DNA of 63,692 nt, filler included, from Barthelona sp. PAP020 (lineage: Eukaryota): assembly GCA_040182905.1 (NCBI GenBank). It is 30 parts of 30 records of this genome, joined end to end, with 100 filler letters (N's around TTAATTAATTAA, not from the genome) between each part and the next. Parts side by side here need not be neighbours in the genome. Positions count along the whole stretch, not along the records: positions 2,231 to 4,338 come from JARQWU010000866.1; 29 more parts are not named here. One strand, written 5' to 3'. A program made the translations under genes and the position numbers. Below are positions 3,089 through 63,692 of this stretch, one piece after another (the stretch's first letter is position 1; the number at the start of each line of letters is the position of its first letter). The notes under the pieces were generated by a model. It searched no databases and had not been told where the DNA came from. It was given only the letters and a program-made list of their open reading frames with translations.

Positions 3089-3536
3089 ATTAAATAAAAA
3101 AAATAAGAGGTCAAATTTGTTGATTTTGGAAAGAAAAAGAATGAATGATTTTAATTAAATTTGTGAAATTTCTGGGAATTCAGAAGTTATCTGAAGAACT
3201 CAACTCAATACAAATAATATTTATATGAATAATAAGTGATTTAATCATTTTTTAAAAAATTCAAAAAGAAAAAGAAAAATTTAAACATTTCAATTTTGAA
3301 GAAACACAAAAAACTAAATTTTATCTCTTTAGATATTAAATTTCAACATGATCAAAGAAATTATTTTAAAACCAAATTTCTCATATTTTTTTTGTTGTGT
3401 ATTAAATTCATTTAGTGAAAAACTAGTGTTCTTTTGTTGTAAAATTTTATTATCTTTTTAGTGTTCATATCATTTCAAAGAAAAAATGAAATGGGGTTGA
3501 AAATTTGTTTAAATATTCCTAATTCTATGTTTTATT

Positions 3537-3741
3537 AGATATTTATGAGGTATGAGTTGTTCAGTGAACAACGAAACTAGCTAGCTTAAGGTTTGGGAAA
3601 AACTCACGTGGATTCAGATGCCCAAGTAACTTAAAAAATTGGACCTAAAGGTGGTCAAGAAACAACAAAATAAAGGGAGTGATATTTGATGACCTCTTTA
3701 TATCTCCAATAAATTCCGTTCATTGAGCATGAACTTCCACA
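3537..3741 (-). repeat. Repeat family A, full copy
   Basis: Reverse complement of 1829-2032. Confidence 0.92.
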
Positions 3742-4085
3742 TTAATAAGATTATTCAAAAAAACAAAAATAAGGAATTTTGTTTGTTTGTTGCTTTCAGA
3801 TTCAAACCATTTTTTTCAAATAATGATGATATTAATTTTTAAGCAATTAATAACACACCTGCACTGTTTATTTTTAAATTGGATTTTGCTTAACTTTTAA
3901 TAAACCATTTGACTGATCCAAAGGGAATAAAAAACAATAAATATTGAAAAACCTAAAGATTTTTTTTGTTGTCTTTCGTTCATACAAAATTATTGTCTGT
4001 TGAACTCTTAAATAATGAAATAAAGAATTGCCTGGTCACAGAACTTCAAACTTTCATTACAATTTCTATTTTTTCCTTTTTCAGT

Positions 4086-4157
4086 TCTTTCGTAGTGTAG
4101 TGGTCATCATTCAAGCCTGTCACGCTTGGGACCGGGGTTCGATTCCCCGCGAGAGAG
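4086..4157 (+). tRNA. tRNA-Asp(GTC)
   Basis: Acceptor TCTTTCG/CGAGAGA, anticodon arm CAAGC-CTGTCAC-GCTTG, T-loop GGTTCGATTCC, T-run shortly after. Confidence 0.96.
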
Positions 4158-4184
4158 AGTTTTGCATAGTCTTCTAAAGGAAGA

Positions 4185-4194
4185 AGGATCGAGT
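4185..4194 (+). promoter_or_regulatory. B-box-like motif AGGATCGAGT downstream of tRNA
   Basis: Identical 10-mer 23-27 nt after all four tRNA genes (also 17266-17275, 42921-42930, 51672-51681 on -); function inferred. Confidence 0.7.
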
Positions 4195-4244
4195 CTTGCA
4201 AATGGACAATTTCACGTTGGACGAAAGGGCAAAATTAAAGGCTT

Positions 4245-4338
4245 TAATTTCACGTTAGGTACAAGAAAAGGTATACGAAAGCTTTTATATACGGTGTGTT
4301 ATTGAAATGAGTAGTTGGGAAAGCCTTGAATTTGAATC
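4245..4338 (+). repeat. tRNA 3'-flank repeat (H3)
   Basis: TAATTTCACGTTAGGTAC...GAATTTGAATC identical to 17317-17410 after tRNA-Ser. Confidence 0.9.
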
Positions 4339-4438: not shown

Positions 4439-4962
4439 ATGTATTGGATCATATTTAACAATCAGAAGTGCAAGAATAGAACCTAGAACATGTTTATTTT
4501 GTCTTTTGGGTGAAATCCGTCCGCTTTGCTACGAACACTTCACTCGACTTCACACGACAATAATAATAAATGTTTATAAAGATCTTTACTGTTCTCGGTT
4601 AGAGTTTGGGGGTACTTGCAACTGAGTCGTTTTGCGTGGATGGTTCAGAACACTCTTAAAGAAAAAAAGAAATGCTTCCAGTTCAGATAGGGCGGGTATT
4701 TAAAGAAAAGTGTAACACTTTCCTTTAGCCCCTTTATTCACTTTAAATATCTCCAGTTATGTTCTCTTTGTAGGACTTTGATAGTCTTTGTTGACCTAAT
4801 TTATTTACTTGTATCCATAATCTTTGAATTCTTACGATTAAGTTTAATATTACTTGAGCTTTTCAATTTTGATACCCATTAATATCAGAAATTGCAAGAA
4901 GAAACCATAAACACATTTATATTGTGTTTTGCGTGAAATCCGTCCGCTTTGCTGCGAACACT
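4439..4962 (+). repeat. Composite dispersed repeat, modules E-F-G-E
   Basis: E (...GTGAAATCCGTCCGCTTT) at 4440-4540, 4862-4962, 26385-26480, 61779-61877; F (CACACGACAATAATAAT...GGTTCAGAACACTCTT) at 4550-4660, 43038-43145 and (3' part) 26145-26190. Confidence 0.85.
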
Positions 4963-5026
4963 TCTTCATCAAGAAACATGAGTTAAACATTTCAACTAGC
5001 AAATGATAAGCTTAATTGAATGATAT

Positions 5027-6241
5027 TCACACACTGCAATCATCATCATTGTTTTCATTCATTTGTATACCCACAAAACTGTACATATTACCCCCTTTAG
5101 CCTCATTAAAGTCAATTAAATCCCAACAAAGATCAACTATCATGTCAAACTCCTCTCTATTCATGCAAATACCTGCAGCTACCAATTGTCTAATGATCTG
5201 AGTGTCGACTTTCATCGCAATTAGATTGGACAGCACGTGACCACCATCCTTTGATAATTCAATTATTTTGGAATGATGGGAAGAGTCACATTGAGAAACT
5301 ATTGAAAACATCCTTATTGTATTATTGGGACATTTTCCACATACTAACCATCTCATGTTGGGAGATATTGCAAAGGATAAGAAATTGGATCCATCACATC
5401 CACAGCAAATCCTTTGAATCTCCTGAAAATTTTCCATACTGTATAATGTCAAATAACCATCACCAGACATAACACCCAAAACAACAGGAGATAAAAAATG
5501 AAGGTCTCCCACTTGACCTTCCATAATAAATGTGTGCAGAAGTGTCAAACTGTCAGTGTTCCACAGTCTTACTTTGTTTGACTTATCGCCAATCGCAATT
5601 ATTCCCATAGTTGGATGGCATTCAATAGCTTTAACATAATCGTCATGATTGATTGTAAAAACAGAGAAATTTTGGGAATCAATCAAACCAACAGTTTTAT
5701 CTCCATCAGCAATTAAAAAATACTTATTGTCATATGAAATATTCAATTTCCAAATCAAATAATGAATTGTTCTTTCCCAAACAATATTGCTTTTTTCAAT
5801 ATCCCACTTCTTGAGGGTTCTATTGGCATCACTAAAATATATATATTTGGAGCAATGAGAAAAACAAATCGCACAAATATAAGTGTCATTCTTTATCCGA
5901 TCCAAAACAGAGAAATTTCGAAGGCTATAAACAGATAGAGAATTATCATCAGAAGATGTTGCTAATTTTTGTCTGTCCTTGGAAAATGCTGTGCTTATAA
6001 CCCAGTCAGAACTATTCCTATTTTTCAAAGTGCGACTAAGTCTTTTAGTTTTAATGTCAAACACATAAACATTGCTTCCATCATTAACCACTACCTTTTT
6101 ACCATCCATTGAATATCCACAATCAAACATATAATCAGAACACATTCCTCCAATTTGTCTGACATTGCTTTCATCAATTTTAAAAGAAAGCATGGCAAAA
6201 ATAGTTTTCTTCATTAATTCATTATTTGACTCCACATACAT
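5027..6241 (-). CDS. WD40-repeat protein with shared CWDL..GGNM C-terminal domain
   Basis: WD40 blades (ATSSDDNSLSVY, DKSNKVRLWN); full-length paralog of 9473-10672 and 33403-34611. Confidence 0.92.
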   Translation of the reverse strand: MYVESNNELMKKTIFAMLSFKIDESNVRQIGGMCSDYMFDCGYSMDGKKVVVNDGSNVYVFDIKTKRLSRTLKNRNSSDWVISTAFSKDRQKLATSSDDNSLSVYSLRNFSVLDRIKNDTYICAICFSHCSKYIYFSDANRTLKKWDIEKSNIVWERTIHYLIWKLNISYDNKYFLIADGDKTVGLIDSQNFSVFTINHDDYVKAIECHPTMGIIAIGDKSNKVRLWNTDSLTLLHTFIMEGQVGDLHFLSPVVLGVMSGDGYLTLYSMENFQEIQRICCGCDGSNFLSFAISPNMRWLVCGKCPNNTIRMFSIVSQCDSSHHSKIIELSKDGGHVLSNLIAMKVDTQIIRQLVAAGICMNREEFDMIVDLCWDLIDFNEAKGGNMYSFVGIQMNENNDDDCSV

Positions 6242-6637
6242 ATACTCAAGAAAAAAACAATGATCATTTAATCATATGTTTGTTGCAATTTTTCAATCAT
6301 TTGTATGATTGAAAATACAAATTAATTTATTTGCATCTTTCAACACACCAAACTGATTCACTTCACTTTTGTTAACAAAATTTTTTTATTTGATTTTTCA
6401 ATTCAATGGATAACACATTGCTTTTATTGATTTAATTTGTTTCACTTAATAAGATTTTTCAAGAAAACTAATTTATCAAATTTTTCTTTTTGAAAATAAC
6501 TCCAAACAAAGCTTTGATCTTCGAAGTTAATTACTCGNNNNNNNNNNNNNNNNNNNNNNNNNNNNNNNNNNNNNNNNNNNNTTAATTAATTAANNNNNNN
6601 NNNNNNNNNNNNNNNNNNNNNNNNNNNNNNNNNNNNN

Positions 6638-8831: not shown

Positions 8832-9065
8832 CATAGACAAAGTTTCCAATATTGGAAGTGATCAGTAACAATCGTTTTGGCGGTAAAGTGAAAAGGAGTT
8901 ACATAAGTTTTATTTTCTGCTCTATGCAGCAAGCCCCCACATTCTAAGATTACGTATTTTTTTTTTTTTTAAAAAAAGAAGACTACCCTTCGACATCAAT
9001 TACGCTCAAGACAAGTTCGATCACCCCAATAAAATCCCAAGCTCTCAGAAACAAAGTCTATAAAC
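8832..9065 (+). repeat. Repeat family C (diverged)
   Basis: AAGTTTCCAxTATTGGAAGTGA...AATCGTTTTGGCGGTAAAG...CCCTTCGACATCAATTACGCTCAAGACAA; copies at 14075-14300 and 15021-15155. Confidence 0.85.
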
Positions 9066-9472
9066 AAAAAAATTATAAATGAAAACAACCAATTCATTTA
9101 TTTTTTTTCATGTGAAAACTTTTAGGAATATCAATGCAAAGAATATAAATAAGTCGCATGCATGGACAAAATTTCTAGATTTTAAAAAGGAAAAATTAAA
9201 TTTTTTTTCTTTTTTTTTTCAACAAATTCAATTTTTGCCTGCATAACACATAAATTCATTTAAATTAAAAGAGCTTTTATTTTTTTGAAAAGACCATGTT
9301 TTTATCTCAGTTCGTTAGAAACAAAATTAGATGCATCTGAAAGATTCAAAATAACTATTTGAGTTGTTAACATTTAACAAACAATTTCAGAAAACTTCAC
9401 TCAAAATGAAAAAAAAATCGAACTTCTGGCCAACCAACAAATTAATGACAGATACAAATATTCCATCTCAAA

Positions 9473-10672
9473 TCAATCATCATCACTCTGTTCCTCTTTC
9501 AATTCAATAAAATTTGCCATATTTCCTCCATTTCTACCATTAATATCAACCAAATCCCAACAACTGCAATATATCATTTTAAATTCAGCAAAATTCATGC
9601 GAATACCTTTAGCTACAACAATTCTCAAAAAACTAGTGTTACAATGCCAGCGAATGAGATTTAATAAAACTGAATCTGTTTGTCGAGACAGATCAACAAA
9701 TTCTGATGGATTGAGCAAAGAATAATCTCCTAACAATGGATAAATCTTAATGTTATTTAGATCACATCTTCCACAAATCAAATTTGTTCGATCAGGTGAA
9801 ACATCAAATGAAAACCATCGCGGTTCACACCCACAAAAAACACTTTGAATTCTTTGTTGATTTTGAGCGTTGTAAAGAGTGATAAACCCATCTCCAGACA
9901 TAAAGAGCAATATCAATGATGTGATGAATTTTAGTGAAAAGACATTGCCTTCCACGCAAACTGTTTGAATAATTGAACCATCAAATGTCCAAATTATCAC
10001 TTTTTTTGATAAACTTGCAAGAGCAATAACATCTTCAAAGGGATGAAAGCAACCAAAAATAAATTGTTCAGACATGCGTTCAAACGTTTGAACAATTGAC
10101 ATATCTTTTAACAAAATAAGTTTGGCATCACTTTGATTGGTACAACTCAAAAGATATTTACCATTTGATGATATTGATAAATGATATACAGACGAGGAAT
10201 GAAGTTTAGAAGAATAAGTACAGATGTTCTGATCAACATCCATTTTGTGAACATATCCATTAATGTCCCCACAGTATAAAAACTTCGAACATTCAGAAAA
10301 AACAAAGTAGTAAGAGATAATTGATTTAATTTCCTTATAAATTGAAAAACTAGGGATGCTATATATGATAATTGAAGAGTCTAATGAACAAGTAGCCATA
10401 AATTGTCCATTTGGGGAGAAACCTACACAATAAACTTCATATCTATGATCTTGTAAAGAACGAATAACTTCCCCTGTTTTTCCATTAAATACAAATACAG
10501 TTTTATTGTAATCTACAACAGCAACATATTTACCATTGAATGAATATTTACAATCCTTCATATGATGAGAAATTAAACCTTCAATAGTTTTGACATTTTC
10601 TTCATCAATTCTCAATTGAAATTTTGAATCTAACGTCTTTTCGACTACATTTAACTCTGAATCATTTGACAT
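9473..10672 (-). CDS. WD40-repeat protein with shared CWDL..GGNM C-terminal domain
   Basis: DHRYEVYCVGFSPNGQFMATCSLDSSIIIY; C-terminus CWDLVDINGRNGGNM. Confidence 0.92.
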   Translation of the reverse strand: MSNDSELNVVEKTLDSKFQLRIDEENVKTIEGLISHHMKDCKYSFNGKYVAVVDYNKTVFVFNGKTGEVIRSLQDHRYEVYCVGFSPNGQFMATCSLDSSIIIYSIPSFSIYKEIKSIISYYFVFSECSKFLYCGDINGYVHKMDVDQNICTYSSKLHSSSVYHLSISSNGKYLLSCTNQSDAKLILLKDMSIVQTFERMSEQFIFGCFHPFEDVIALASLSKKVIIWTFDGSIIQTVCVEGNVFSLKFITSLILLFMSGDGFITLYNAQNQQRIQSVFCGCEPRWFSFDVSPDRTNLICGRCDLNNIKIYPLLGDYSLLNPSEFVDLSRQTDSVLLNLIRWHCNTSFLRIVVAKGIRMNFAEFKMIYCSCWDLVDINGRNGGNMANFIELKEEQSDDD

Positions 10673-10823
10673 GCTTGATTATCTTTTAAAGAGAAAAATC
10701 AATCAAAACAAAGCATTTTGGAAAGTTGTTCTTCAATTTATTACAAAAGAAAAATGAAAGTAGTTTATTAGATCAATCGAAAATATATGAAAAAAGAAAG
10801 ACAAAAGCAAAAAACTCAAACTC

Positions 10824-10921
10824 AAAAAAAAAATATGAAATAAGACTTTATTGAACTTTTCCGTAAAGAGACTCCATAAAACATCCCAATTGAGTGACGA
10901 CAGCAAACACTCAAAACTGAT
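10824..10921 (-). repeat. Repeat family I (end of a repeat, at contig end)
   Basis: Identical to 63592-63690; on the - strand it ends AATAAAGTCTTATTTCATA(T)n. Confidence 0.9.
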
Positions 10922-13967: not shown

Positions 13968-14388
13968 GTTATTTTCTTTTTGGGATAAAAAAAAGTGACA
14001 AAAAAAAAAAATAATAATAATTTGATTTCTTTTTTCCTTTACAATTATAGACTATAATGGGTGAAGATTTCAAACATACAAACAAGGTTTCCATTATTGG
14101 AAGCAGTTGATAAAAATCGTTTCGGTGGAAAGATAAAGAAGAAACTCCACAAGTCTAATTTTCTGCTTTATACAGCAAGCTTACATTTTAAGAATGCGTT
14201 TTTTTTTTTTAAGAAGGCTCCCCTTCGACATCAATTACGCTCAAGACAAAATCGACCACCCCATTAAACCCCCTAAACTCATCGAAACAAAGTCTATAAA
14301 TGAAAAAATATAAATGAAAAAAAAACGATAAAAAGCTGAAAATGAATAAATAAACACAATCAAAGTTCTTTGTAACGAAAAAAAACAC

Positions 14389-14634: not shown

Positions 14635-14718
14635 TTTTAGAAAAAATATTTGGTCTCATCATCAAATAAGTTTTCATTTACGGTTGTATATGCCCTGATT
14701 TTCGCAACAGAGAAAGAT

Positions 14719-15014
14719 AATTGGTCCAGTTGTGAAACAGCTATATTTATTTACAAAGAAAGTAAACTCAGAAAACTCATTCTGGCAAATTTCAGTCAAA
14801 ATCCCAGGAGGGGAATTGAGGGATTGAAATGTAATTGAAATTCTTCAATACTATTCTTTTGAATTTTTGCAAAAGCAAAATTTTAAAGTTTAAACTTTCC
14901 CCAGAAAATCGAAAGTTTCTCAACAGATCAATCGGGCCTCGAAAGCCTTTGACCAAATAAACACTGTTCTTTTTTATTCACTCATACGCACAGTGCTTCT
15001 TGGCTTGGAAATAA
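14719..15014 (+). mobile_element. MITE family B, partial copy with right TIR
   Basis: Colinear with 20432-20753; ends CAGTGCTTCTTGGCTTGGAAATAA. Confidence 0.85.
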
Positions 15015-15151
15015 TCACATACATACACAAAGTTTCCAGTATTGGAAGTGACCGATAATAATCGTTTTGGCGGTAAAGTAAAAAGGATTTACCTAAGATC
15101 TATTTTTTGCTCTGCATAGCAAGCCCACATTTTATGATTACGTATTTTTTA

Positions 15152-15244
15152 TTTTTCCGAGGGAACTTTTCCCCTTTTGTTATTCCTTAAATTCCGAGAT
15201 GCTGGTACTCAGGATTATTTGATTCGTTAGTTAATAAAATAAAC
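15152..15244 (+). repeat. Repeat family D
   Basis: Reverse complement present at 55645-55740; both copies at contig ends. Confidence 0.9.
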
Positions 15245-17161: not shown

Positions 17162-17242
17162 GCTAAGGTGGTCGAGTGGTTAAGACGGTAGTTTGCTAAG
17201 CTGCTGCCGAAAGGCTCATGGGTTCGAATCCCATCCTTAGCG
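17162..17242 (+). tRNA. tRNA-Ser(GCT)
   Basis: Acceptor GCTAAGG/CCTTAGC, anticodon loop TTGCTAA, long variable arm GCCGAAAGGC, GGTTCGAATCC, TTTT after. Confidence 0.96.
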
Positions 17243-17546
17243 TTTTATCCATCTATTTAGGGAACAGGATCGAGTCTTTGAAATGTTGATTCATGATGCA
17301 AAACAGAAAATGATTATAATTTCACGTTAGGTACAAGAAAAGGTATACGAAAGCTTTTATATACGGTGTGTTATTGAAATGAGTAGTTGGGAAAGCCTTG
17401 AATTTGAATCCTGGCTGTTTNNNNNNNNNNNNNNNNNNNNNNNNNNNNNNNNNNNNNNNNNNNNTTAATTAATTAANNNNNNNNNNNNNNNNNNNNNNNN
17501 NNNNNNNNNNNNNNNNNNNNATCATTATTTATTGTTATACTGGCAA

Positions 17547-19927: not shown

Positions 19928-20112
19928 TTGTTGATAAATTATGTTCTTTATTTTATTTTTCCCATATCTTTGAAATCTTCCATTTTCATTTGTTCGCTTT
20001 ACTCAAAATAAAAAAAAAAAATAAAAAAATAAAATAATGCGACTTTTGTGTTTAATTGTAAGAAACATTTCTTGGCCAAAAAGTACTGTGTTCATGAGTG
20101 AAAAAGAAATAA

Positions 20113-20316
20113 TGTGGAAGTTCATGCTGAATGAACGGAATTTATTGGAGATATAAAGAGGTCATCAAATATCACTTCCTCTATTTGTTGTTTCTTGACC
20201 ACCTTTAGGTCTAATTTTGTAAGTTACTTGGGCATCTGAATCCACGTGAGTTTTTCCCAAACCTTAAGCTAACTCGTTTCGTTGTTCAATGAACAACTCA
20301 TACCTCATAAATATCT
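20113..20316 (+). repeat. Repeat family A, apparently inserted into a decayed family B terminus
   Basis: B-like sequence at 20068-20110 resumes as TAGTGTTTATTTGG after the A copy; AATAA on both sides. Confidence 0.8.
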
Positions 20317-20385
20317 AATAATAGTGTTTATTTGGTCAATAGTCAATTTGTTGAAACAGTTAATTTTTCAAAAGTAAATAGTAAA

Positions 20386-20753
20386 TTATTTCCAAGCCAA
20401 GAAGCACTGTGCGAATGAGTGAATAAAAAAGATTGGTCCAGCTGTGAAACAACATTATTTATTAACAAAGAAAGTAAACTCAGAAAACTCATTCCAGCAA
20501 ATTTCAGTCAAAATCCCAGGAGGGGAATTGAGGGACTGAAATGTAATTTGAACGATCAAGTAGGAGAATTTTGGAGAAATTCTTCATTCCTATTTTTTGT
20601 ATTTTTGCAAAAGCAAAATTTTAAAGTTTGAACTTTACCTTAGAAAATCTGAAGTCTTTCAACAAATCAATCGGGCCTCGAAAGCCATTAAAGAAATGAG
20701 CACTATTCTTTTTTGTTTACTCATACGCACAGTGCTTCTTGGCTTGGAAATAA
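20386..20753. mobile_element. MITE family B, complete non-autonomous TIR element (~368 bp)
   Basis: TTATTTCCAAGCCAAGAAGCACTGTGCGAATGAGTGAATAAAAAAGA ... TCTTTTTTGTTTACTCATACGCACAGTGCTTCTTGGCTTGGAAATAA; other pieces at 1590-1828, 20757-21023, 21085-21215, 23615-23893, 42300-42600, 51344-51438, 55832-55903. Confidence 0.88.
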
Positions 20754-32059: not shown

Positions 32060-32490
32060 ACATTGTTACTTTGTTGCCTGTAGCAGGGCCCAGAACTCTG
32101 CGAGAAGTCCAGTTAGCCTGTACCTGATGCGAGGCCAGAGCGTGTGCTTGACGTATGGAGAGACTCTTTGCAGACACTTGTTGAAGAAAGTAGAGACTGT
32201 GCTTGAGAAAAGACCAGTCTCTGAAAACACCAGAGGAATAACAGTATCACCGAACTTGCACTTTTTGCGTCTTTCAGCATACTCGATTGAGTTGGCAATA
32301 CTGATGTCATAGAGCTTCACAACTTTGGTTGAACTATCTGTCAATTGCATGTCTGCTCTACCTTGCTGAGTGACTGGTTCAATGTTTGGGACAATGAATT
32401 TAGCAAGGCGACCCAAGTTTCTCAATTCCTTTAGGACTGCATCGTGTCTTCTTCTACGTAGACTCTTCTGATTAAATGACTGATTAAATG
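32060..32490 (-). mobile_element. 3' fragment of a non-LTR retrotransposon with restriction-like endonuclease (RLE)
   Basis: Extending the ORF upstream gives RRRRHDAVLKEL...IEP...RADM...YDISI...RKKCKF...PLVFSETG, i.e. the RHD/EP/RxD/D/KxxK/P..G RLE motif order. Confidence 0.8.
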
Positions 32491-32601
32491 AGGTTTATAC
32501 CNNNNNNNNNNNNNNNNNNNNNNNNNNNNNNNNNNNNNNNNNNNNTTAATTAATTAANNNNNNNNNNNNNNNNNNNNNNNNNNNNNNNNNNNNNNNNNNN
32601 N

Positions 32602-33402: not shown

Positions 33403-34611
33403 TCAATCAACAACTTCATCACTTTCATAATCACTTTGTTCATTGAAAAATGAGTGCATATTTCCACCCTTCATTTCATTGGTGTCAATCAAGTCCCAAC
33501 ATGTGTCAACAATCATGTTATACTCCACTTCATTCATGTATATCCCTGCAGCTACCAATTGTCTTATGACTTGAGTATCAATATTCAAAGCCATAAGATT
33601 CGACAATACATAGCCACCATCCCTTGACAATCGAATGAGTTCCGCCTCATGTGAGGGGTTATAGTCAATGACAATTGAATAGATTTTGATGACATTCCCT
33701 GCACATCTTCCACACGCTATTTGTCTCTTATCAGGGGATATAGCAAAGGAAAACTGGGCAAAGTCACAACCACAATGTACCTTTTGAATTTGCTGATAGG
33801 TTTCAACATTGAATGAAATAATATAGCCATCACCAGACATCATAAGCAAGATATAGGGTGATAAGAAATGAAGACACCATACTTGACCACCCATATCAAA
33901 TGTATGAATGAGTGATCCGTCGTCCATGTTCCAGAGTTTGACTTTTTTTGAAATATCACCAACAGCAATCATTCTTTCAGTTGGGTGAAAATCAATAGCT
34001 CTAATATCCCCATCATGACTGAATGTACGAACAACAGACAAATCATCTGGGTCAACCAACTTGGCAATATTACCACATCCAGTCAAAAGATATTTACCAT
34101 CTGTTGATAGTTTCACTCTCCAACAAGGGCCATTCGAAATTCTCTTTTCCAAGACAATACTCTCATTATTTGTGTCAATTTTCGTAAGAGTTCCATTGTA
34201 ATCAAAATAATATACATAATTTGAACAAGAAGAAAAACAAATTCTAAGAATAGCAATTTCACCATTCAATCTACATAAGATGGAGAAATCTGGAAGGCTG
34301 TATACAATGATAGACTTATCTTGGGAACATGTTGCCAGCTTCTGCCCATTTGGTGAAATTGCAATACCATAAACCTGGTGTGCATGCTCTTTCAATGTAC
34401 GATTCAACATTCCAGTTGCTACATCAATGATATGAACAGCTTTACGATCACAAACAACCAATTGTTTACCATTTGGCAAGTATTTACTGTCACACACATA
34501 AGCAGAATCAGAAATCACATTTGCAATTTCAACTTCACTATTTTCATCAATATTTAGAGGAAATAAACCACATATAAACTCTCCTATTTCACCACTTAAT
34601 TCAACAGACAT
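33403..34611 (-). CDS. WD40-repeat protein with shared CWDL..GGNM C-terminal domain
   Basis: EHAHQVYGIAISPNGQKLATCSQDKSIIVY; CWDLIDTNEMKGGNM. Confidence 0.92.
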   Translation of the reverse strand: MSVELSGEIGEFICGLFPLNIDENSEVEIANVISDSAYVCDSKYLPNGKQLVVCDRKAVHIIDVATGMLNRTLKEHAHQVYGIAISPNGQKLATCSQDKSIIVYSLPDFSILCRLNGEIAILRICFSSCSNYVYYFDYNGTLTKIDTNNESIVLEKRISNGPCWRVKLSTDGKYLLTGCGNIAKLVDPDDLSVVRTFSHDGDIRAIDFHPTERMIAVGDISKKVKLWNMDDGSLIHTFDMGGQVWCLHFLSPYILLMMSGDGYIISFNVETYQQIQKVHCGCDFAQFSFAISPDKRQIACGRCAGNVIKIYSIVIDYNPSHEAELIRLSRDGGYVLSNLMALNIDTQVIRQLVAAGIYMNEVEYNMIVDTCWDLIDTNEMKGGNMHSFFNEQSDYESDEVVD

Positions 34612-34735
34612 AATAAACAAACAAAAAAAAAAAAANNNNNNNNNNNNNNNNNNNNNNNNNNNNNNNNNNNNNNNNNNNNTTAATTAATTAANNNNNNNNN
34701 NNNNNNNNNNNNNNNNNNNNNNNNNNNNNNNNNNN

Positions 34736-37788: not shown

Positions 37789-38050
37789 CAAAATAATTTT
37801 ACAGATGCGAAAATGTAACGCAAATTATTTTTTGATTGATGATGTATACAGGACATTTTTTTGTAAACACAAATGAATCTGTTCCCTTTTCAAAAAAACT
37901 GGACATTAAATCTTTAAATAAGGAACTTTTGAAGAAAAAACAACAATTCTTACAACAAGAGATTGCATGTTACACTATTTTTACAGTTTTTTTCACAAAG
38001 ATACGAAGGTAATAAAATGTTTTAAGCTTATTTATATATGATTATCAGAA

Positions 38051-38674
38051 ATGAACACTTTTAATCACTTTTTTTGTTCGTTGTGTTGTTTAATATTGTT
38101 GTCATTCAAATTTTTTAAATATAGACAAATTAAAATATCATCTCTATGTGCTTGCGCATTATTATTTGGAACTTTTCAAGATTTAGATATGATATTTAGC
38201 AAACTATTTTTGAATAAACCAAGTTATCATTTGAGAACTTGGATACAGGAGCCTTTTGGTTTTCTTATAATAGGATCAGTTTTATCATTTGCTTTTTCAA
38301 CCCGTTTTAAAAAGAAAAGACTTGCATTTTATATTCTTATTCCATATTTCATACACGTTTTTCTTGATTATTTAGTAGTTCATGAAGTTTCACCCTTTGC
38401 ACCTTTTTCAAATTTTTCCATCAGCACTTCAAAATTATTTGCAAAATTTCGATCTTTTGATCAACCTCCAATTCTATCTTTGTTTGAGGGAGAATATTTG
38501 TCTGAATTGTGGGTTAATATATTTTCTATTGGTTGCTTTTTGTTTTTACTCAATAGAGTAAAAATTCACAACAAAAACAACAGGATAGAGGTCACAATTC
38601 TCGATTTAAAACAAATTATCACTTCTCCGCCTGAATTTACAATTGTGGCAAAAAGGATTGCTGATCGAGTGTGA
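38051..38674 (+). CDS. Membrane metal-dependent hydrolase, YdjM/YbcI-like
   Basis: N-terminal H, QDLD, HLRTW, HVFLD, PFAPFS with TM segments. Confidence 0.7.
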   Translation: MNTFNHFFCSLCCLILLSFKFFKYRQIKISSLCACALLFGTFQDLDMIFSKLFLNKPSYHLRTWIQEPFGFLIIGSVLSFAFSTRFKKKRLAFYILIPYFIHVFLDYLVVHEVSPFAPFSNFSISTSKLFAKFRSFDQPPILSLFEGEYLSELWVNIFSIGCFLFLLNRVKIHNKNNRIEVTILDLKQIITSPPEFTIVAKRIADRV

Positions 38675-38997
38675 GAGTTTCAATGTTATAACAATTAAAA
38701 AAAAATTCCAAAATTTCTTTTTATTCCATGCACATAAATTTTGTAGTTAAAAATTTTTCTTAATATTCTTGATATTTGAAAAGAAGAAATCCATTAATAA
38801 TGTGGAAGTTCATGCTCAATGAACGGAATTTATTGGAGATATAAAGAGGTCATCAAATATCACTCCCTTTATTTGTTGTTTCTTGACCATCTTTAGGNNN
38901 NNNNNNNNNNNNNNNNNNNNNNNNNNNNNNNNNNNNNNNNNTTAATTAATTAANNNNNNNNNNNNNNNNNNNNNNNNNNNNNNNNNNNNNNNNNNNN

Positions 38998-41853: not shown

Positions 41854-42823
41854 AGTTTATTTTTGTAAATGTAATATCAAATGTTTTTTATGCCAATGAT
41901 AATCACACTTGCAAATTCTATTGAAGAAGTAACATTTCAGAAAGGAAAGAAGCAAATGAAAAAAGTATATACAATGACTTGACTGATCATAAATTGATTT
42001 TTGCCTGCTCAAGATTTTAAAGGGAAGAAACAATGCCATTGTGAATAAAAAACAATATTCATGGAAATGTTTTAATTGTTCCTTAGAAAGGCGCCAATGC
42101 TTTGTGTAATAAATCGAATTTATATGTCTTTGTTTTACACTTCCCAATCAAACAATAGAAACATCACTAACATAACTTTTATTTTTCATAAAATGGTATG
42201 ACAATATTTTAACCAGTTTCTTTAAGAAAAGAAAAATTGTGGTTAAATTGAGAAGAAATTTTTCAAAAGAAATTTCCAACAATTTAAAAAAATTTTCTTT
42301 TAGGGGAAAATTGAGGAACTGAAATGTAATTTTGGGCAAGTTTGAAAATTTTGGAGAAATCCTTCAATCCTACTTTTTTTATAAACTTTAAAATTTGGTT
42401 TTTGCAAAACTACAAAAAAATAGGAATGGAAAAATTTTTCCCAAATTTTCATACAAGACCAAGATTCCATTACAACCACTCATTTTCTGTGGTTGAGATT
42501 TAATGAAATGAGTTTTCTCTGATTTCTTTTTCTTTGCAAATAAATATTGTTGTTTCACAACTTGATTAAATATACTTAGGCTTTCCTGGCTTGGAAATAA
42601 TTTAAAATTACAAATTAACAATTGAATGTGAAAATAATTGTTCAACTTGAATTTATTCCTGTTTCCCATTTAATAACATTTATAGTTTTTAAATTGGAAG
42701 GGATAAAAGAAACCTTAAATATTCATGTTGTACATTTGGAAAGTCCTTTTCTTTGGGAAAAAAAAATCTATTGATTCTATTTCCTAAACATTAATGTACA
42801 AACACTTTGATTTTGCCCTAGAT

Positions 42824-42895
42824 GGGCTAATGGCTCAGTGGTAGAGTTCCTGGTTCGCATTCAGGGGGCCCCGGGTTCGATTCCCGGTTAGTCCA
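42824..42895 (+). tRNA. tRNA-Ala(CGC)
   Basis: Acceptor GGGCTAA/TTAGTCC with G3:U70, anticodon arm CCTGG-TTCGCAT-TCAGG, GGTTCGATTCC. Confidence 0.96.
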
Positions 42896-43245
42896 GTTTT
42901 TTCAATTTTTGTCGAGAAAAAGGATCGAGTTTCTCGAGTTTCAACAATTCACTTTGGACGAAAGGGTAAAATTAAAGGCTTTAATTTATATTTACTAACT
43001 GGGGTTGGGGAAATTACTCCATGGTATCTTTGCTGTTTCACACGACAATAATAATAAATGTTTATAAAGATCTTTATTGTTCTCGGTTAGAGTTTGGGGG
43101 TACTTGCAACTGAGTCGTTTTGCGTGGATGGTTCAGAACACTCTTNNNNNNNNNNNNNNNNNNNNNNNNNNNNNNNNNNNNNNNNNNNNTTAATTAATTA
43201 ANNNNNNNNNNNNNNNNNNNNNNNNNNNNNNNNNNNNNNNNNNNN

Positions 43246-50484: not shown

Positions 50485-51145
50485 GAAAAATCGACAAAAA
50501 AAACTTTGTTATTTCTTTTTTTTTAATTTTATTATTGATCTCATTTATACATTTTACTTTAATAAAAAAACTAAACATGTACTTGTTGTTTGAAATAATT
50601 ATGAAATTATATTGAAATAGAGTCTTTTAAGATGGGTTATTTTCATTATTTTTGCTCTTTGGAAGAAATTTTTTTCAAGATCAAAAACATGATTAGTCTA
50701 ATTGAAAAAGATTTCTTTTCAAAATCTTTAAAACCTGGATTACAGTTTTCCATTTGGTAATCTGTTTGCATGAATAAATTTATTTATTTATTTCTGATTT
50801 TTAACAACAAATTTCTTGTTTCAAGAAAAAAGAATTCTTTTTTTGATAATTCCTGAACCTTTCATTTGTACTAGTTTAATAAGTGAAACAGGATGAGAAG
50901 TTCATTAAAACAACTTCACTTTATTGCTACAAAAGTTGAGTTCAAGAAAACATTTGGATCTGTTTTTTTTTTGAATTCAAAGTATCTATGTACAAAATAA
51001 CACTGTGGGTTTGAAAAAATATGTTAAGGTGGATTAAAAGATATGAATATTTTGGGTGTTTAAAATTGTAAGTTTGTTTATTAGTCATTAAATGTTTTAT
51101 ATATAAATAAATAAAGAAAAAAAATATTTATTTATTATAAATTAA

Positions 51146-51438
51146 TGTGGAAGTTCATGCTCAATGAACGGAATTTATTGGAGATATAAAGAGGTCATCA
51201 AATATCACTTCCTTTATTTATTGTTTCTTGACCACCTTTAGATCCAATTTTTTAAGTTACTTGGGCATCTGAATCCACGTGAGTTTTTCCCAAACCTTAA
51301 GCTAACTCGTTTCGTTGGTCATTGAACAACTCACACCTCATAATTATTTCCAAGCCAAGAAGCACTGTGCGTATGAGTGAATAAAAAAGAATAGTGTTTA
51401 TTTGGTTAAAGGCTTTCGAGGCCCGATTGATCTGTTGA
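51146..51438 (+). repeat. Family A copy directly abutting a family B terminus
   Basis: ...CACACCTCATAA/TTATTTCCAAGCCAAG... Confidence 0.9.
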
Positions 51439-51707
51439 NNNNNNNNNNNNNNNNNNNNNNNNNNNNNNNNNNNNNNNNNNNNTTAATTAATTAANNNNNN
51501 NNNNNNNNNNNNNNNNNNNNNNNNNNNNNNNNNNNNNNTTATAAAGGGCATTCAGTTCACGAACTAAACTCAGATCAGGAATTGACAAACACCAACTAGC
51601 CAACCTTCTCATCCTATAATCCTTGTAAAAGCTTTTATAATCATTTTCTGTTTTGCATCTTGAATTGCGAAACTCGATCCTGTTTCCTTCAGAAGAAATT
51701 TAAAAAA

Positions 51708-51781
51708 CACCGGTACTGGGACTCGAACCCAGAATCCTCAGATTAGAAGTCTAATACCCTATCCAATTAGGCTATACCGGC
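51708..51781 (-). tRNA. tRNA-Arg(TCT)
   Basis: Reverse complement GCCGGTA...TTAGA-CTTCTAA-TCTGA...GGTTCGAGTCC...TACCGGTG, followed by T6. Confidence 0.96.
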
Positions 51782-55237: not shown

Positions 55238-55894
55238 GGGAAAAAAAATTACAAATGGATATTTTTATCTTAACTTCAATTCACGTTCTCACATTCAAAT
55301 TTTTAAATTTTGACTGTATTAAAACAAGACAATCTTTATTTGATTTTTATCAACAAAAAAATTAAAACAGAATTGGATTTTGCAGTTTCAACCAATTAAA
55401 AAAAAAGAATCAATGAAATATTTATCCAAACATCAATAAACCAAATTATTGATCTGGATTTGTGTATGCAACTGCTGTTCTAACTTTGTGAATTTTTGTG
55501 TCAATGGTTCTAAGGGAAACTAATTGAGCATTTTTAATCTCTTTNNNNNNNNNNNNNNNNNNNNNNNNNNNNNNNNNNNNNNNNNNNNTTAATTAATTAA
55601 NNNNNNNNNNNNNNNNNNNNNNNNNNNNNNNNNNNNNNNNNNNNGTTTATTTTATTAACTAACGAATCAAATAATCCTGAGTACCAGCATCTCGGAATTT
55701 AAGGAATAACAAAAGGGGAAAAGTTCCCTCGGAAAAATAAAAGAATTATTTCAATAATGTAATTAGATCAAGTTATAAAAAGAATTATATTATTCACAAA
55801 GAAAGCAAACCAAAAGATACATGTCAGGAGATTATTTCCAAGTCAAGAAGCACTGTGCACTGTACACATAAGTGAATAAAAATTAATGGTGTTC

Positions 55895-57069: not shown

Positions 57070-57356
57070 AGTTGCAGATAGTTCAACCAAAGTTGTGAAG
57101 CTCTATGATATCAGTATCGCCAACTCAATCGAGTATGCTGAAAGACGCAAAAAGTGCAAGTTCGGTGATGCCTGTTGTTCCTCTGGTGTTTTCAGAGACT
57201 GGTCTTTTCTCAAGTACAGTCTCTACTTTCTTCAACAAGTGTCTGCAAAGGGTCTCTCCCTACGTCAAGCACACACTCTGGCCTCGCATCAGGTACAGGC
57301 TCGCTGGACTTCTCGCAGAGTTCTGGGCCCTGCTACAGGCAACAAAGTAACAATGT
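57070..57356 (+). mobile_element. Second 3' fragment of the RLE retrotransposon, frameshifted
   Basis: Near-identical reverse complement of 32060-32345; +1 frameshift at GATGCCTGTT. Confidence 0.85.
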
Positions 57357-57691: not shown

Positions 57692-59632
57692 ATCATCAAC
57701 ATCTTCAATAACAGGTTCAGAAGAAGCTGAAGGACCAGTAGCACCAGCTCCAGGGAATCCAGCACCACCGGGGAATCCACCAGGGAATCCAGCTTGACCT
57801 TGAGCACCAGGTTGTCCACCCATGGCAGCATAAGCAGCTTGAAGAATAGGCATAAATTGACCTTCTAATTCTTTTTGCTTTTCTTCATAGACTTCCTTGG
57901 TTTCATTGGGATGACCAGCAATCCATTGAGCAGTTTCTTCAACAAGTTCATTGATCTTTTTGACAGAGTCTTCAGGAATCTTGTCCTTTAATTCACCGGT
58001 AAGAGAGTTACGAACACCAAAGATATATGTTTCAAGTTTGTTCTTTGCTTCAATTTGATCAGCAACCTTTCTGTCAGCTTCTGCATTGGCTTCAGCTTCA
58101 GCAACCATGTTGTCGATTTGTTCCTTGGAAAGACGACCAGTATCATTTGTGATAGTGATTTGGTTAGTCTTACCAGTTCCCTTTTCTTCAGCAACAACGG
58201 ACATAATACCGTTGGCATCAACTTTGTATGTAATTTCAATTTTGGGAGTTCCACGAGGAGCTGGGGGAATATCATTGAGGAAGAAAGAACCAATCAAGTT
58301 GTTGTGTTTGGTTAATGGTCTTTCACCTTCAAAGACACGGATTTCAACTGAAGTTTGGTTATCAGCAGCAGTGGTGAAAATATCCTTCTTCTCACAAGGA
58401 GTCATAGTTCCTCTAGGAATAAGAGTAGCCATACGTTGACCTTGAGTTTCAATTCCCAAAGACAAAGGAGTGACATCAACAAGAATAATGTCTTGGGTTT
58501 CTTCAGTGGCTTCACCGGCAAGGATGGAAGCTTGAATGGCAGCACCCCAAGCAACAGCTTCATCAGGGTTGATGTTTCTGGCAGGTTCCTTTCCATTGAA
58601 GAATTCCTTGATTAATTCTTGAATCTTGGGAATACGAGTTGAACCACCAACTAAAACAACTTCATGAATTTCATTCTTATCCAAATCAGCATCACGAAGA
58701 ACGTTTTCAACGGGTTTCATGCAAGAACGGAAAAGATCCATGTTTAATTGTTCAAAACGAGCACGAGTTAATTGACATTCAAAATCTTCACCTTCAAAGA
58801 GAGCTTCAATTTCAATAGTGGTTTGGGCAGAAGAGGAAAGAACAATCTTAGCTCTTTCAGCTTCATTTCTCAAACGACGAAGGGCACGATCAGAAGATTC
58901 AATGTTGAGTCCAGGATGTTGTTTCTTAAATTCTTCAACCAAATATTTAACGATACGAGAATCAAAGTCTTCACCACCCAAGTGAGTATCACCGTTAGTG
59001 GCAATAACATTGAAGAAATCTCCTTCAATGGCAAGAAGAGATACATCGAAAGTACCACCACCAAGATCGAAAATCAAAACGTTACGTTCAACTTCTGTGT
59101 TATTGTTCAAACCATATGCAATAGCGGCAGCAGTGGGTTCATTAAGAACACGTAAAACATTAAGACCAGCAATACGACCAGCATCCTTTGTAGAATTTCT
59201 TTGAGAATCATTGAAATAAGCAGGAACAGTAACAACAGCATCCTTAACTTCAGTACCAAGATAAGCTTCAGCAATGCTAACCATCTTTTCTAAGACCATG
59301 GCAGAAATTTGTTCAGCATAATAACGCTTCTTTTCACCTTGGAAGTTAACTTCAATCATGGGACGATCATTGTCTCCTTGAATAACGTCAAAATGCCAAT
59401 GCTTCATATCTTCTTGAACGGTTCTGTCAGAAAAACGACGTCCGATAAGACGCTTTGCATCAAAGACAGTGTTCTTAGGATTACGAGCAGCCTGACGTTT
59501 GGCGGCTTCACCAATAAGACGTTCACGCTTTGTAAAAGCAACATAAGAAGGAGTAGTTCTGCGACCTTGATCGTTTGTAAGAATTTCAACACGACCATTG
59601 TTCATAACACCAACACATGAGTAGGTGGTACC
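57692..59632 (-). CDS. HSP70: Cytosolic-type HSP70, nearly complete (start and stop beyond contig ends)
   Basis: [43 protein letters not shown] repeats, terminal IEDVDD. Confidence 0.97.
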
Positions 59633-61670: not shown

Positions 61671-62218
61671 NNNNNNNNNNNNNNNNNNNNNNNNNNNNNN
61701 NNNNNNNNNNNNNNTTAATTAATTAANNNNNNNNNNNNNNNNNNNNNNNNNNNNNNNNNNNNNNNNNNNNTCGAGTTTTTCAATTTTGATACCCATCAAT
61801 ATCAGAAATTGCAACAAGAAACCTTAAAAATTTTTATACGGCTCTTTGCATGAAATCCGTCCGCTTTCCTACGAACATAAAGAAATTATTCCAGTTTGGG
61901 TGGGGCAGGTGTTTGAAGAAAAGATTCACACTTTTTTATACCTTCAACCTCCAACCCTGATCTGATTCACTTTAAATGTTTGATATCAATTAAGTGTTTG
62001 ATTGACATTATGTGTAAGATACACATTATTTCCTTCTTTTCCAGCCCTTTTGTCTTTATTATTTATTTGTATAACATTTCTATTTTGAAAAGAAAAAAAG
62101 AAACCATAACAAATATTTTATAAAGTTAATTGAATGGATGTGAAAAATGGAAAACAATAATAAATGTGACACATAAGAAAAAGAAGAAAAGAAAAAGACT
62201 TTTGAACGAAATTCAGTA

Positions 62219-63586
62219 TCATGAAAATCCTTCAGGAAAGTGCAACGAACCAAATAAGTCCAGATCAGCATTTTTAAACGAAATCATCATAATTGAGTCA
62301 TTGAAACCTTCGCAATTGATGTCTGGCATTATCTTGAAACCATGTTGATCACCAAATCCACTTTCCATCATAATGCAAGCGTCTGCGTCAATCTCTTTCA
62401 AAGCAATCAGAATAGCTTCAATCACTTTACTTTCTAAGTCTTGATCAAGATGTTCATCCGCAGTCATCAATGGATGAATTGCAAATATGTTGAGTTCATC
62501 AAAATTATCGAGATAAACTTTGGACACACAGCTGTAACAAACAACAGTATCATCAATTGATGCAAAACACTCAAAAGTTATTGCATCTTCCTTTCTTAAA
62601 GCTGATGCACTAAAGCCCTCTATTGTGTTTGCCATTTGGCTCAAAAAAAAATCAATCTTCGCATGATCTTCAGTATTTGCCATGCAAATTATGGCAGAAG
62701 CAACATCATTATCAAGTTTTTCTCCCTCATTTTTCTCATCAATTAGATCGGGTGAATCAACAGACGTAAAATCCGATGGTTCAATGACTTTCTTCTTATT
62801 CGATTTTTTTTTCACTCTAATGTCTGTCAATTTCTTTTTTTTACGTTTGCTTTTTGTTTTCTTTTGAATTTTTTGGTCATCAACGGTGTCTAATGTGAAA
62901 GGATCTGTTTTCAAATTATCAACAATTTCTAAAGGCGAAAATGACAAATTAGCTAGAGAAGAATTATCATTAACAACTAAATCTATTTTATCTATTGGTT
63001 TGATGTCAATATCCTTAGGTTCTGTATTAAAAGATTTTTCGATGATTTGATTTTGAGTGTCTTTTGATGATTTTGGTTCAACTTCTTGTAAAACTTGAAC
63101 TTGAGTCGGTTTCGAGCTGAAATCAACACTGTTTTCAATTTCAATTCCCAAACCTAAATTAACAGTATAAACATCAGCTTCATCTTGCCTTTTTTGTTCT
63201 TTTGCTAACAAAATATCATTCCCTGTAAAGATAGATTTCTTTAAAATGTTCTTTAGATATGAAAAAGTTTTTACATCTTCAAAAGCTTCCATTGCTAATT
63301 TAATATCAATATTGGAATCATTAATCTTCTTCTTTGAATCTCGTAATTCTTTGTCTACTTTAATAAAAGGTGATGTTGTTCTTTGAACATGTTCACTAAC
63401 TCTAAAATATCCCATACTTGGTTGATTGACCGAATATACTAAAAATTGGGACAGCTCTTCATTAATACCATTTAAACTTTGAGCAATCTTTGATAATGAA
63501 GGTTTTGCTTCAACAAATGTCGGAGATATCCCTTTCTTTGCATTTGAAAATTGCTTTTGTGTGTCTAAAAACAAGGTATCTCTCAT
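62219..63586 (-). CDS. BORCS8/MEF2BNB-like domain fused to a degenerate GNAT (YhbS-like) domain
   Basis: VNQPSMGYFRVSEHVQRT matches BORCS8 ANEPSV..YR.QEHVRR; C-terminal 150 aa follows the YhbS pattern ending GSLHFPEGF. Confidence 0.7.
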   Translation of the reverse strand: MRDTLFLDTQKQFSNAKKGISPTFVEAKPSLSKIAQSLNGINEELSQFLVYSVNQPSMGYFRVSEHVQRTTSPFIKVDKELRDSKKKINDSNIDIKLAMEAFEDVKTFSYLKNILKKSIFTGNDILLAKEQKRQDEADVYTVNLGLGIEIENSVDFSSKPTQVQVLQEVEPKSSKDTQNQIIEKSFNTEPKDIDIKPIDKIDLVVNDNSSLANLSFSPLEIVDNLKTDPFTLDTVDDQKIQKKTKSKRKKKKLTDIRVKKKSNKKKVIEPSDFTSVDSPDLIDEKNEGEKLDNDVASAIICMANTEDHAKIDFFLSQMANTIEGFSASALRKEDAITFECFASIDDTVVCYSCVSKVYLDNFDELNIFAIHPLMTADEHLDQDLESKVIEAILIALKEIDADACIMMESGFGDQHGFKIMPDINCEGFNDSIMMISFKNADLDLFGSLHFPEGFS

Positions 63587-63692
63587 AAAGTAAAAAAAAA
63601 ATATGAAATAAGACTTTATTGAACTTTTCCGTAAAGAGACTCCATAAAACATCCCAATTGAGTGACGACAGCAAACACTCAAAACTGATATC

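Follow-up and report, generated by a model that had tools for sequence, protein, structure and literature searches.

The analysed DNA (63 692 nt; hereafter the window, to which all counts given below refer) consists of 30 contigs of Barthelona sp. PAP020, a free-living, anaerobic metamonad protist; each is 1.9–2.1 kb in length, and they are joined by spacers of N's and have a GC content of approximately 30%. Long unbroken eukaryotic ORFs extend across the contigs, and the HSP70 gene at 57692–59632 (minus strand) encodes a product with 100% identity to a Barthelona sp. PAP020 protein, all the remaining matches being at most 63% identical. According to the consulted part of its description, the published PAP020 draft is an Illumina-only SPAdes assembly of 1035 contigs with a GC content of 30.5%, presented there without a repeat figure (PMC11316075). 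The words “tRNA”, “Helitron” and “retrotransposon” are absent from the main text of that publication (as distinct from its supplements).

Four tRNA genes are located in the window, all of them on short (~2-kb) contigs assembled from short reads only: tRNA-Asp(GTC) (4086–4157, plus strand; internal B box at 4136 and a T4 run at 4160–4163), tRNA-Ser(GCT) (17162–17242, plus strand), tRNA-Ala(CGC) (42824–42895, plus strand) and tRNA-Arg(TCT) (51708–51781, minus strand). The DNA upstream of each gene is unique and contains single-copy genes. The firmest feature of these loci, overlooked in the initial annotation, lies on the other side: an invariant 10-mer, AGGATCGAGT, is present 24–28 nt 3′ of all four genes and 46–50 nt past their internal B boxes. 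Its copies occupy positions 4185–4194 behind tRNA-Asp (plus strand; +28, 50 nt from the internal B box), 17266–17275 behind tRNA-Ser (plus strand; +24, 46 nt), 42921–42930 behind tRNA-Ala (plus strand; +26, 48 nt) and 51672–51681 behind tRNA-Arg (minus strand; +27, 49 nt).

These are the only exact matches to AGGATCGAGT in the window, the single one-mismatch match being placed in a coding region. The linked pattern of a tRNA and the motif gave four matches compared to none in 100 shuffles, and the longest word common to four random 60-mers did not exceed 8 nt in 20,000 draws. The four 5′ flanks have no common motif longer than 5 nt. Since the bases beside AGGATCGAGT are mostly unrelated (only 7–13 of the 20 bases preceding it are identical between pairs of loci), its conservation stands far above that of its surroundings and it behaves as a selected motif.

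In its sequence AGGATCGAGT resembles a B box, from whose core it differs in that an A replaces the first T; an A at this position occurs in the B boxes of eukaryotic initiator tRNAs. When the window was scored with a matrix trained on eight tRNAs, the external sites ranked 7, 8, 60 and 62 of ~127,000. The motif is probably a binding site of the host TFIIIC. The Dictyostelium B-box consensus GTTCRANNC, as given in the consulted part of PMC5391098, is matched with one mismatch (Asp, Ser) or two mismatches (Ala, Arg). The motif resembles the external B box of that organism.

The possibility that AGGATCGAGT is an att-like copy of the 3′ end of each tRNA was dismissed, since an identical 10-mer is found behind genes whose internal B boxes are of three different sequences. 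The tRNA-plus-motif pattern had no match in viral contigs; in the JGI metagenome collection it was found in only 13 stretches, which were read as chance matches; all of them are GC-rich (55–70%) and none carries the modules described below. A search of sequencing runs yielded one run, X1, with a share of 0.05, and listed no RNA run. A 151-nt contig of a sediment metagenome (run X1) contains the same unusual tRNA-Asp, with one difference in 78 nt (4081–4158), and possibly derives from a related protist; the first 30 nt of its flank differ, and the motif is absent within those 30 nt. The only other matches of this run to the window were seven chance pieces of 34–39 nt.

Behind the external motif, each tRNA gene is followed by short repeat units, the first of which begins with TTCA 16–26 nt past the motif. 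The tRNA-Asp flank carries a truncated unit of 38 nt (Asp1; 4208–4248, plus strand) with what is termed a D-type head, followed by unit E (4249–4338, plus strand), which is cut by the contig end and is identical to the copy located 3′ of tRNA-Ser. Behind tRNA-Ser, a truncated unit of 31 nt with an S-type head (Ser1; 17290–17320, plus strand) is likewise followed by E (17321–17420, plus strand), reaching the contig end. The tRNA-Ala flank contains a unit of 89 nt with a D-type head (Ala1; 42948–43036, plus strand), which is not interrupted by E, and then unit F1 (43037–43145, plus strand), which extends to the contig end and is 99% identical to 4549–4657. The unit behind tRNA-Arg (Arg1; 51539–51664, minus strand) has an S-type head, is also free of an E interruption and is cut by the contig end at a length of at least 126 nt. 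A further copy of F1 lies within an array at 4549–4655 (plus strand); 10 bp from its start are imperfectly duplicated in front of it. Unit lengths are thus 31, 38, 89, ~100 (E), 107 (F1) and at least 126 nt.

In all eight heads the TTCA side faces the tRNA (equivalent to a TGAA end on the minus strand), and it is the opposite side that varies. A profile built from all the heads detected eight sites in the window at E < 0.05: seven are behind tRNAs, at +44, +48, +53, +54, +79, +92 and +142, and the eighth is inside an array. The family is therefore confined, within the window, to tRNA 3′ flanks and the array, which supports the tRNA linkage proposed in the initial annotation.

The combinatorial sharing of modules between flanks, also described there, was borne out, every sequence string quoted being present. 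The Asp and Ala heads differ at 2 of 38 positions and the Ser and Arg heads at 1 of 30, while 4245–4338 and 17317–17410 (Asp and Ser) are 100% identical over 94 bp. The presence of two stacked modules after tRNA-Asp was confirmed as well: AATTTCACGTT occurs at 4208 and 4246, and again at 17318. The points at which Asp1 and Ser1 give way to E do not correspond to each other, and Ala1 and Arg1 continue without E. Because the interrupted units have these uninterrupted relatives, the stacking is real, and E is a recent addition at both loci. The 7-mer GCTGTTT, correctly reported as common to the Ser and Ala flanks, is found at 17414 and 43032 (10 matches in the window), and the Ser and Ala units can be aligned up to it (p = 0.002). 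A search for target site duplications identified, in Asp1, an 11-bp direct repeat of AATTTCACGTT (4208 and 4246) flanking 27 bp, which may be regarded as TSD-like; such a repeat was present in one of the four units tested.

Sequence similarity suggests kinship among the unit types, three of the six pairs being significant (E–Ala1, p = 0.002; E–Arg1, p = 0.006; Arg1–F1, p = 0.024) and the other three not. With leave-one-out profiles, the S type alone was ranked top among the hits outside the training set (E = 0.65), E was weak (E = 36) and the D and F types were missed. The reading frames of the units are full of stops and have no match to the reverse transcriptase protein P0123 (see below), no ORF of the flanks has a Pfam match, and no unit belongs to an Rfam family. 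Poly(A) is absent both at the TTCA ends and at the far ends of unit G, and an A-rich run follows F1 on the plus strand. No tandem repeat was detected in the four tRNA flanks.

A longer unit, G, into which F1 leads, was found at the starts of three contigs other than those with the tRNA genes. At the start of one contig, the far end of a G copy (4439–4541, minus strand) contains a perfect A box (4531–4521) and a B-like box (4483–4473); it is followed by F1 and by a whole G unit of ~305 bp (4656–4961, minus strand), whose A box (4954–4944) has one mismatch and in which no T4 occurs for 253 nt before a T7 run near the end. The second whole copy, preceded by part of F1, is located at another contig start (26145–26484, minus strand), with a perfect A box at 26477–26467 and a T10 run near the end. 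The region 61771–62140 (minus strand) comprises a G far end, with a one-mismatch A box at 61871–61861, joined directly to a second, decayed G. The head-to-tail joins G-F1-G (4439–4961), F1-G (26145–26484) and G-G (61771–62140) are all situated at contig starts. Every array flanking a tRNA is cut by a contig end and none is visible from end to end, so that G is linked to tRNAs solely through the F1 copy 3′ of tRNA-Ala; the four ends on the tRNA side and the three far ends may represent arrays that were cut mid-way. Wherever a far end of G is present (three contigs), the array adjoins the 3′ end of a minus-strand gene at a distance of ~70–140 nt (gaps 4961–5027, 26484–26620 and 62140–62219).

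The far end of G carries a 17-mer that is invariant in all four copies, and an A box on the minus strand that is perfect in two copies and has one mismatch in the other two, in the same register as the A box of a tRNA (tRNA-Asp). Perfect A boxes number five in the window, three in tRNAs and two at G far ends (the average in shuffles being 2.9). The copy at 4439–4541 is the best non-tRNA combination of A and B boxes among 127,244 positions, the four copies ranking 9, 133, 134 and 451; a good B-like box, 48 nt past the A box, is present in one of the four. In both whole copies, a tract of 253 nt without T4 precedes the T7 or T10 run. T4 is absent from only 43 of 4336 overlapping non-coding segments, but under the dinucleotide make-up of G itself its absence is expected with P = 0.19 per copy. 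The first 100 nt of the two copies are 91% identical, compared to 54–70% further on. From these sequence features, G is probably best described as SINE-like. It had no match to the tRNA covariance model at E ≤ 10, none in a tRNA sequence profile and none in Rfam, and no conserved structure was predicted (folding z = −2.3 for one copy and −1.0 for the second; three-copy consensus −2.9 kcal/mol). The G-end motif was found neither in viral contigs nor in prokaryote genomes. A subdivision of G into a set of ~100-bp units was tried and rejected (one of 24 tests with p < 0.03).

As originally noted, the tRNA genes point toward nearby contig ends: the distances from their 3′ ends (Rfam boundaries) are 181, 178, 250 and 169 nt, within the stated range of 169–250 nt, and closeness of this degree has p = 2.6e-4 under uniform placement. 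The initial annotation had further proposed that a cassette behind every tRNA gene breaks the assembly. It is present at all four genes; since the window contains ~2-kb contigs only, it is enriched for genes with contig-breaking flanks, which qualifies the term “every”. The breaking itself is not special to tRNA flanks, because identical terminal blocks of 94–99 nt are found at 8 of the 60 contig ends, forming four pairs, of which only one is tRNA-linked and the other three belong to different repeat families. The identity of the ~94-bp Asp/Ser block is thus complete, as stated, and its length is a generic assembler effect rather than an element boundary.

Several other repeats are present in the window. 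A family of ~207 bp (1824–2130, 3532–3746, 20106–20322, 38794–38897, 51140–51347 and 31918–31984) has sharp ends with TAA on both sides and, close to either end, a hairpin of −4 to −5 kcal/mol; two of its copies stand in tandem, and the family is not tRNA-linked. Another family (20384–21030, 14713–15016, 23619–23893, 42302–42578 and 51343–51438) is MITE-like, carries terminal inverted repeats of ~45 bp and is nested and stacked with other repeats. Two short families end contigs, one located at 8832–9088, 14071–14323, 15022–15244 and 55645–55742, and the other at 10824–10921 and 63592–63689. Among the protein-coding genes, five WD40 and ankyrin-repeat genes (5027–6271, 9473–10678 and 33403–34635, minus strand; 21842–23415 and 24405–25880, plus strand) have a common, unnamed C-terminal domain (CWDLID..E..GGNM-like) and constitute an expanded family in which the N-terminal repeats have been swapped. 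The ORF at 38042–38674 (plus strand) encodes a YdjM inner-membrane-protein domain (Pfam E = 1.3e-8); this family is mainly bacterial, and a possible origin of the ORF is gene transfer.

The search for reverse transcriptase ORFs revealed one complete protein and three fragments related to it, none of the latter (0/3 in the window) at a tRNA gene. The protein, P0123, is a complete ORF of 1405 aa with an RVT_1 domain, derived from the transcriptome of this species (EP00792 P009751/P009750). The first fragment (32069–32494, minus strand; not tRNA-linked) matches its C-terminal domain, the second (30434–30724, minus strand; not tRNA-linked) shows 43% identity to its residues 1054–1158, and the third (57098–57347, plus strand) is of a non-LTR retrotransposon related to P0123. 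One of these fragments leads, at its 3′ end, into a member of the 207-bp family. Among 1.84 billion representative proteins, the ORF at 32069–32494 had a single relative, which was P0123 (E = 5.6e-7); the 142-aa fragment found no match among longer proteins, and its matches in the Atlas were unnamed eukaryote clusters. The protein collection contains just two proteins related to P0123, both of them distantly; viral contigs contain none, and the PDB gave only weak reverse transcriptase matches. It contains no detectable APE domain, and its C-terminal domain, for which there was no Pfam match, is presumably a restriction-like endonuclease (RLE), judging by its motifs. A comparison of the 3′ tails of two fragments with the unit ends gave p < 0.05 in none of 14 tests in the expected orientation and in 3 of 14 in the other. 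An element of the P0123 type is a candidate helper only. According to the part of PMC4640811 consulted, most elements of this group are target-specific, their 3′ ends being precise and their 5′ ends variable, and a Trichomonas element of this broad type is specific to tRNA-Pro genes.

The arrangement was compared with known systems, above all with the Dictyostelium element TRE3, to which it had been likened in the initial annotation. In Dictyostelium, 66% of tRNA genes have an external B box ~41 bp downstream according to the portion of PMC3159450 consulted, the share being ~80% according to that of the review PMC5911963, in which it is also stated that TRE3 targets regions downstream of external B boxes and that insertion downstream of tRNA genes is found in dictyostelids only. 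The external B box/TRE3 and Skipper-2 system and Barthelona both have a second B-box-like motif tens of bases behind the tRNA, repeats at ~+40 to +150 and a compact genome (consulted parts of PMC3159450, PMC5911963 and PMC5006619), and the observed head positions (+44 to +142) fall in the 40–150 bp downstream range of TRE3 insertions. In contrast to Dictyostelium, Barthelona is a metamonad, its motif is an invariant 10-mer with an A instead of the first T of the B-box core, and the repeats are short, non-coding, without poly(A) or LTRs, and apparently pointing towards the tRNA. The analogy with Dictyostelium is strengthened by the B-box-like motif in a comparable position; membership of TRE3 is not supported: the units contain no ORF, let alone the two ORFs (APE, RT, zinc finger) of that element, and no poly(A) 3′ end; with the A box on the strand facing the tRNA, their inferred orientation is opposite rather than parallel to it; and the RT element of Barthelona lacks a detectable APE domain.

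tRNA-type SINEs are mobilised by a partner LINE. Unit G has in common with them its ~300 nt non-coding body, an A box at the tRNA position, a B-like box in one copy, a conserved head with a variable body and an A-rich strand; it differs in having neither a tRNA fold nor a tRNA-derived head, in a B box that has decayed in three of four copies, in lacking a 3′ tail common with the two RT-fragment tails, and in being found only in tRNA-associated arrays. The RLE-encoding non-LTR elements (CRE, R2, R4, NeSL, including NeSL-1_TV at Trichomonas tRNA-Pro) resemble the Barthelona repeats in that their boundaries are precise on the 3′ side and variable on the 5′ side, in that they insert in tandem and in that they target small RNA genes (consulted part of PMC4640811), and they resemble P0123 in the C-terminal domain; in Barthelona, however, the target is a non-coding flank common to four different tRNA genes rather than the sequence of one gene, and the units encode nothing. 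Taken together, the Barthelona layout works like the external B box/TRE3 system without belonging to TRE3, and it is SINE-like without showing all the features of a SINE. In the literature searched (most subscription journals being outside reach), the motif and repeats are undescribed in barthelonids, and no external B box is reported outside Dictyostelium.

The explanation that we favour, at somewhat below an even chance, is that SINE-like non-autonomous repeats have been retro-inserted behind an extra box, the external B box of the host. The fixed TGAA ends, the variable far ends, the A-box head pointing towards the tRNA and the presence of an RT element in the genome fit such targeted retroposition. 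Host TFIIIC would bind AGGATCGAGT, and G, or G together with F1, would be transcribed by Pol III, although a transcript of both units together would terminate at the T7–T10 run that separates them. The TTCA side would correspond to the 3′ end of the RNA and the short units to 5′-truncated copies, inserted near the motif in reverse orientation to the tRNA by an RT element acting in trans, the helper possibly being an element of the P0123 type. New copies would land at +44 to +54 nt or inside earlier copies (+79 to +142), generating the mosaics, and the head-to-tail joins could result from repeated insertion or from template jumping. Template jumping is a property of R2. Several observations count against this explanation: the sample of only four genes, all on short contigs; the mismatches and ranks of the external motif; the presence of a B-like box in one of four G copies and the lack of a tRNA covariance match; the number of perfect A boxes in shuffles and the P = 0.19 for T4-free tracts; the weak similarity among unit types; the TSD-like repeat in one of four units; and the RT-element fragments, whose tails do not resemble the unit ends in the expected orientation and which all lie away from tRNA genes. 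A more specific version, in which an external B box independent of that of dictyostelids is combined with a Pol III-headed SINE homing by means of an RLE retrotransposon that recognises the motif or the TFIIIC bound to it, is conceivable, and we hold it to be less probable than not by a clear distance.

A rather unlikely alternative, though not a negligible one, dispenses with transposition: a host flank consisting of the external B box and a ~100-bp spacer would have been duplicated and patchily homogenised among dispersed tRNA genes by ectopic recombination or template switching, with short common motifs as the points of exchange. The patchwork of sharing (a core between Asp and Arg, heads between Asp and Ala and between Ser and Arg, unit E between Asp and Ser) agrees with this, as do the coincidence of the junctions into E with short shared TAA or TAATTT, the common end (GCTGT) of E and Ala1, and the fact that the rest of an interrupted unit is never found behind E. 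However, the points at which E sets in do not correspond between the two heads, the G-G and G-F1-G joins and the A box at the end of G would need an extra explanation, and the genome harbours several other mobile-looking short repeat families. That the shared blocks are chimeras of short-read graph assembly is barely credible, despite the four pairs of identical 94–99-nt contig-end blocks and the Illumina-only SPAdes draft (consulted part of PMC11316075). An assembler may append a shared repeat edge but should not create unique head-to-E junction words; the junctions are unlikely to be artefacts because each is spanned by locus-specific sequence, and the loci differ by substitutions in the heads and around the 10-mer.

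Non-autonomous Helitron2-like elements, or degenerate DNA elements with terminal inverted repeats (TIRs), that prefer a site 3′ of tRNAs are unlikely candidates. The stacked TTCA heads would then be left ends present several times over, and the tip of the element may be formed by the 10-mer. Helitron2 is characterised by asymmetric TIRs of 8–15 bp, the 3′ one located 20–30 bp from the end (PMC3627910; see also PMC5148889), and repeated Helitron left ends have been described (PMC11417382; each source as far as consulted). Tandem, stacked ends and a short inverted motif close to one end recall Helitron2/HINE elements: CGTGAAAT lies ~22 nt before the end of G, and its reverse complement is found in the E/Asp1 head. 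E and the G copy agree at 26455 in 9/9 nt, inverted matches overall extend over 6–9 nt, and 9 of 28 comparisons of heads with far ends gave a marginal p ≤ 0.05 in inverted orientation. The predicted hairpins, however, are weak or absent (11 of the 12 ends fall between 0 and −2.6 kcal/mol, and one reaches −4.4), the left-end and far-end profiles fail to find each other, the invariant motifs differ between the two ends, and no RepHel or transposase domain was detected in the 123 + 10 ORFs scanned, ~17 longer ORFs falling outside that scan. The literature search yielded no tRNA-linked Helitron. Very unlikely, finally, is that G represents a structured RNA gene of the host (7SL- or RNase P-like) that is present in several copies and clustered with tRNA genes, or that the flanks represent Entamoeba-type tRNA arrays, in which tandem tRNA genes are separated by short tandem repeats. 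The length of G (~300 nt), its A box and T-run and the folding of one copy (z = −2.3) would suit an RNA gene, but not the lack of an Rfam match, the z = −1.0 of the second copy, the consensus of −2.9 kcal/mol and middle parts only 54–70% alike. In contrast to Entamoeba-type arrays, the Barthelona tRNA genes are single, lie next to unique upstream DNA with single-copy genes, and have no tandem repeats in their four flanks.

The repeat-bearing flanks explain why tRNA genes end short-read contigs in Barthelona sp. PAP020. The motif alone constitutes a testable prediction for other barthelonid and Skoliomonas genomes. Should the favoured retroposition reading be true, a second case in a distant eukaryote with a compact genome would mean that the combination of an external B box and downstream targeting has arisen by convergence, and would provide an independent system for studying the role of the extra box and whether elements use it. 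If, in addition, a SINE moved by an RLE retrotransposon is involved, the family would reach every tRNA gene and would build head-to-tail chains of different small RNAs.
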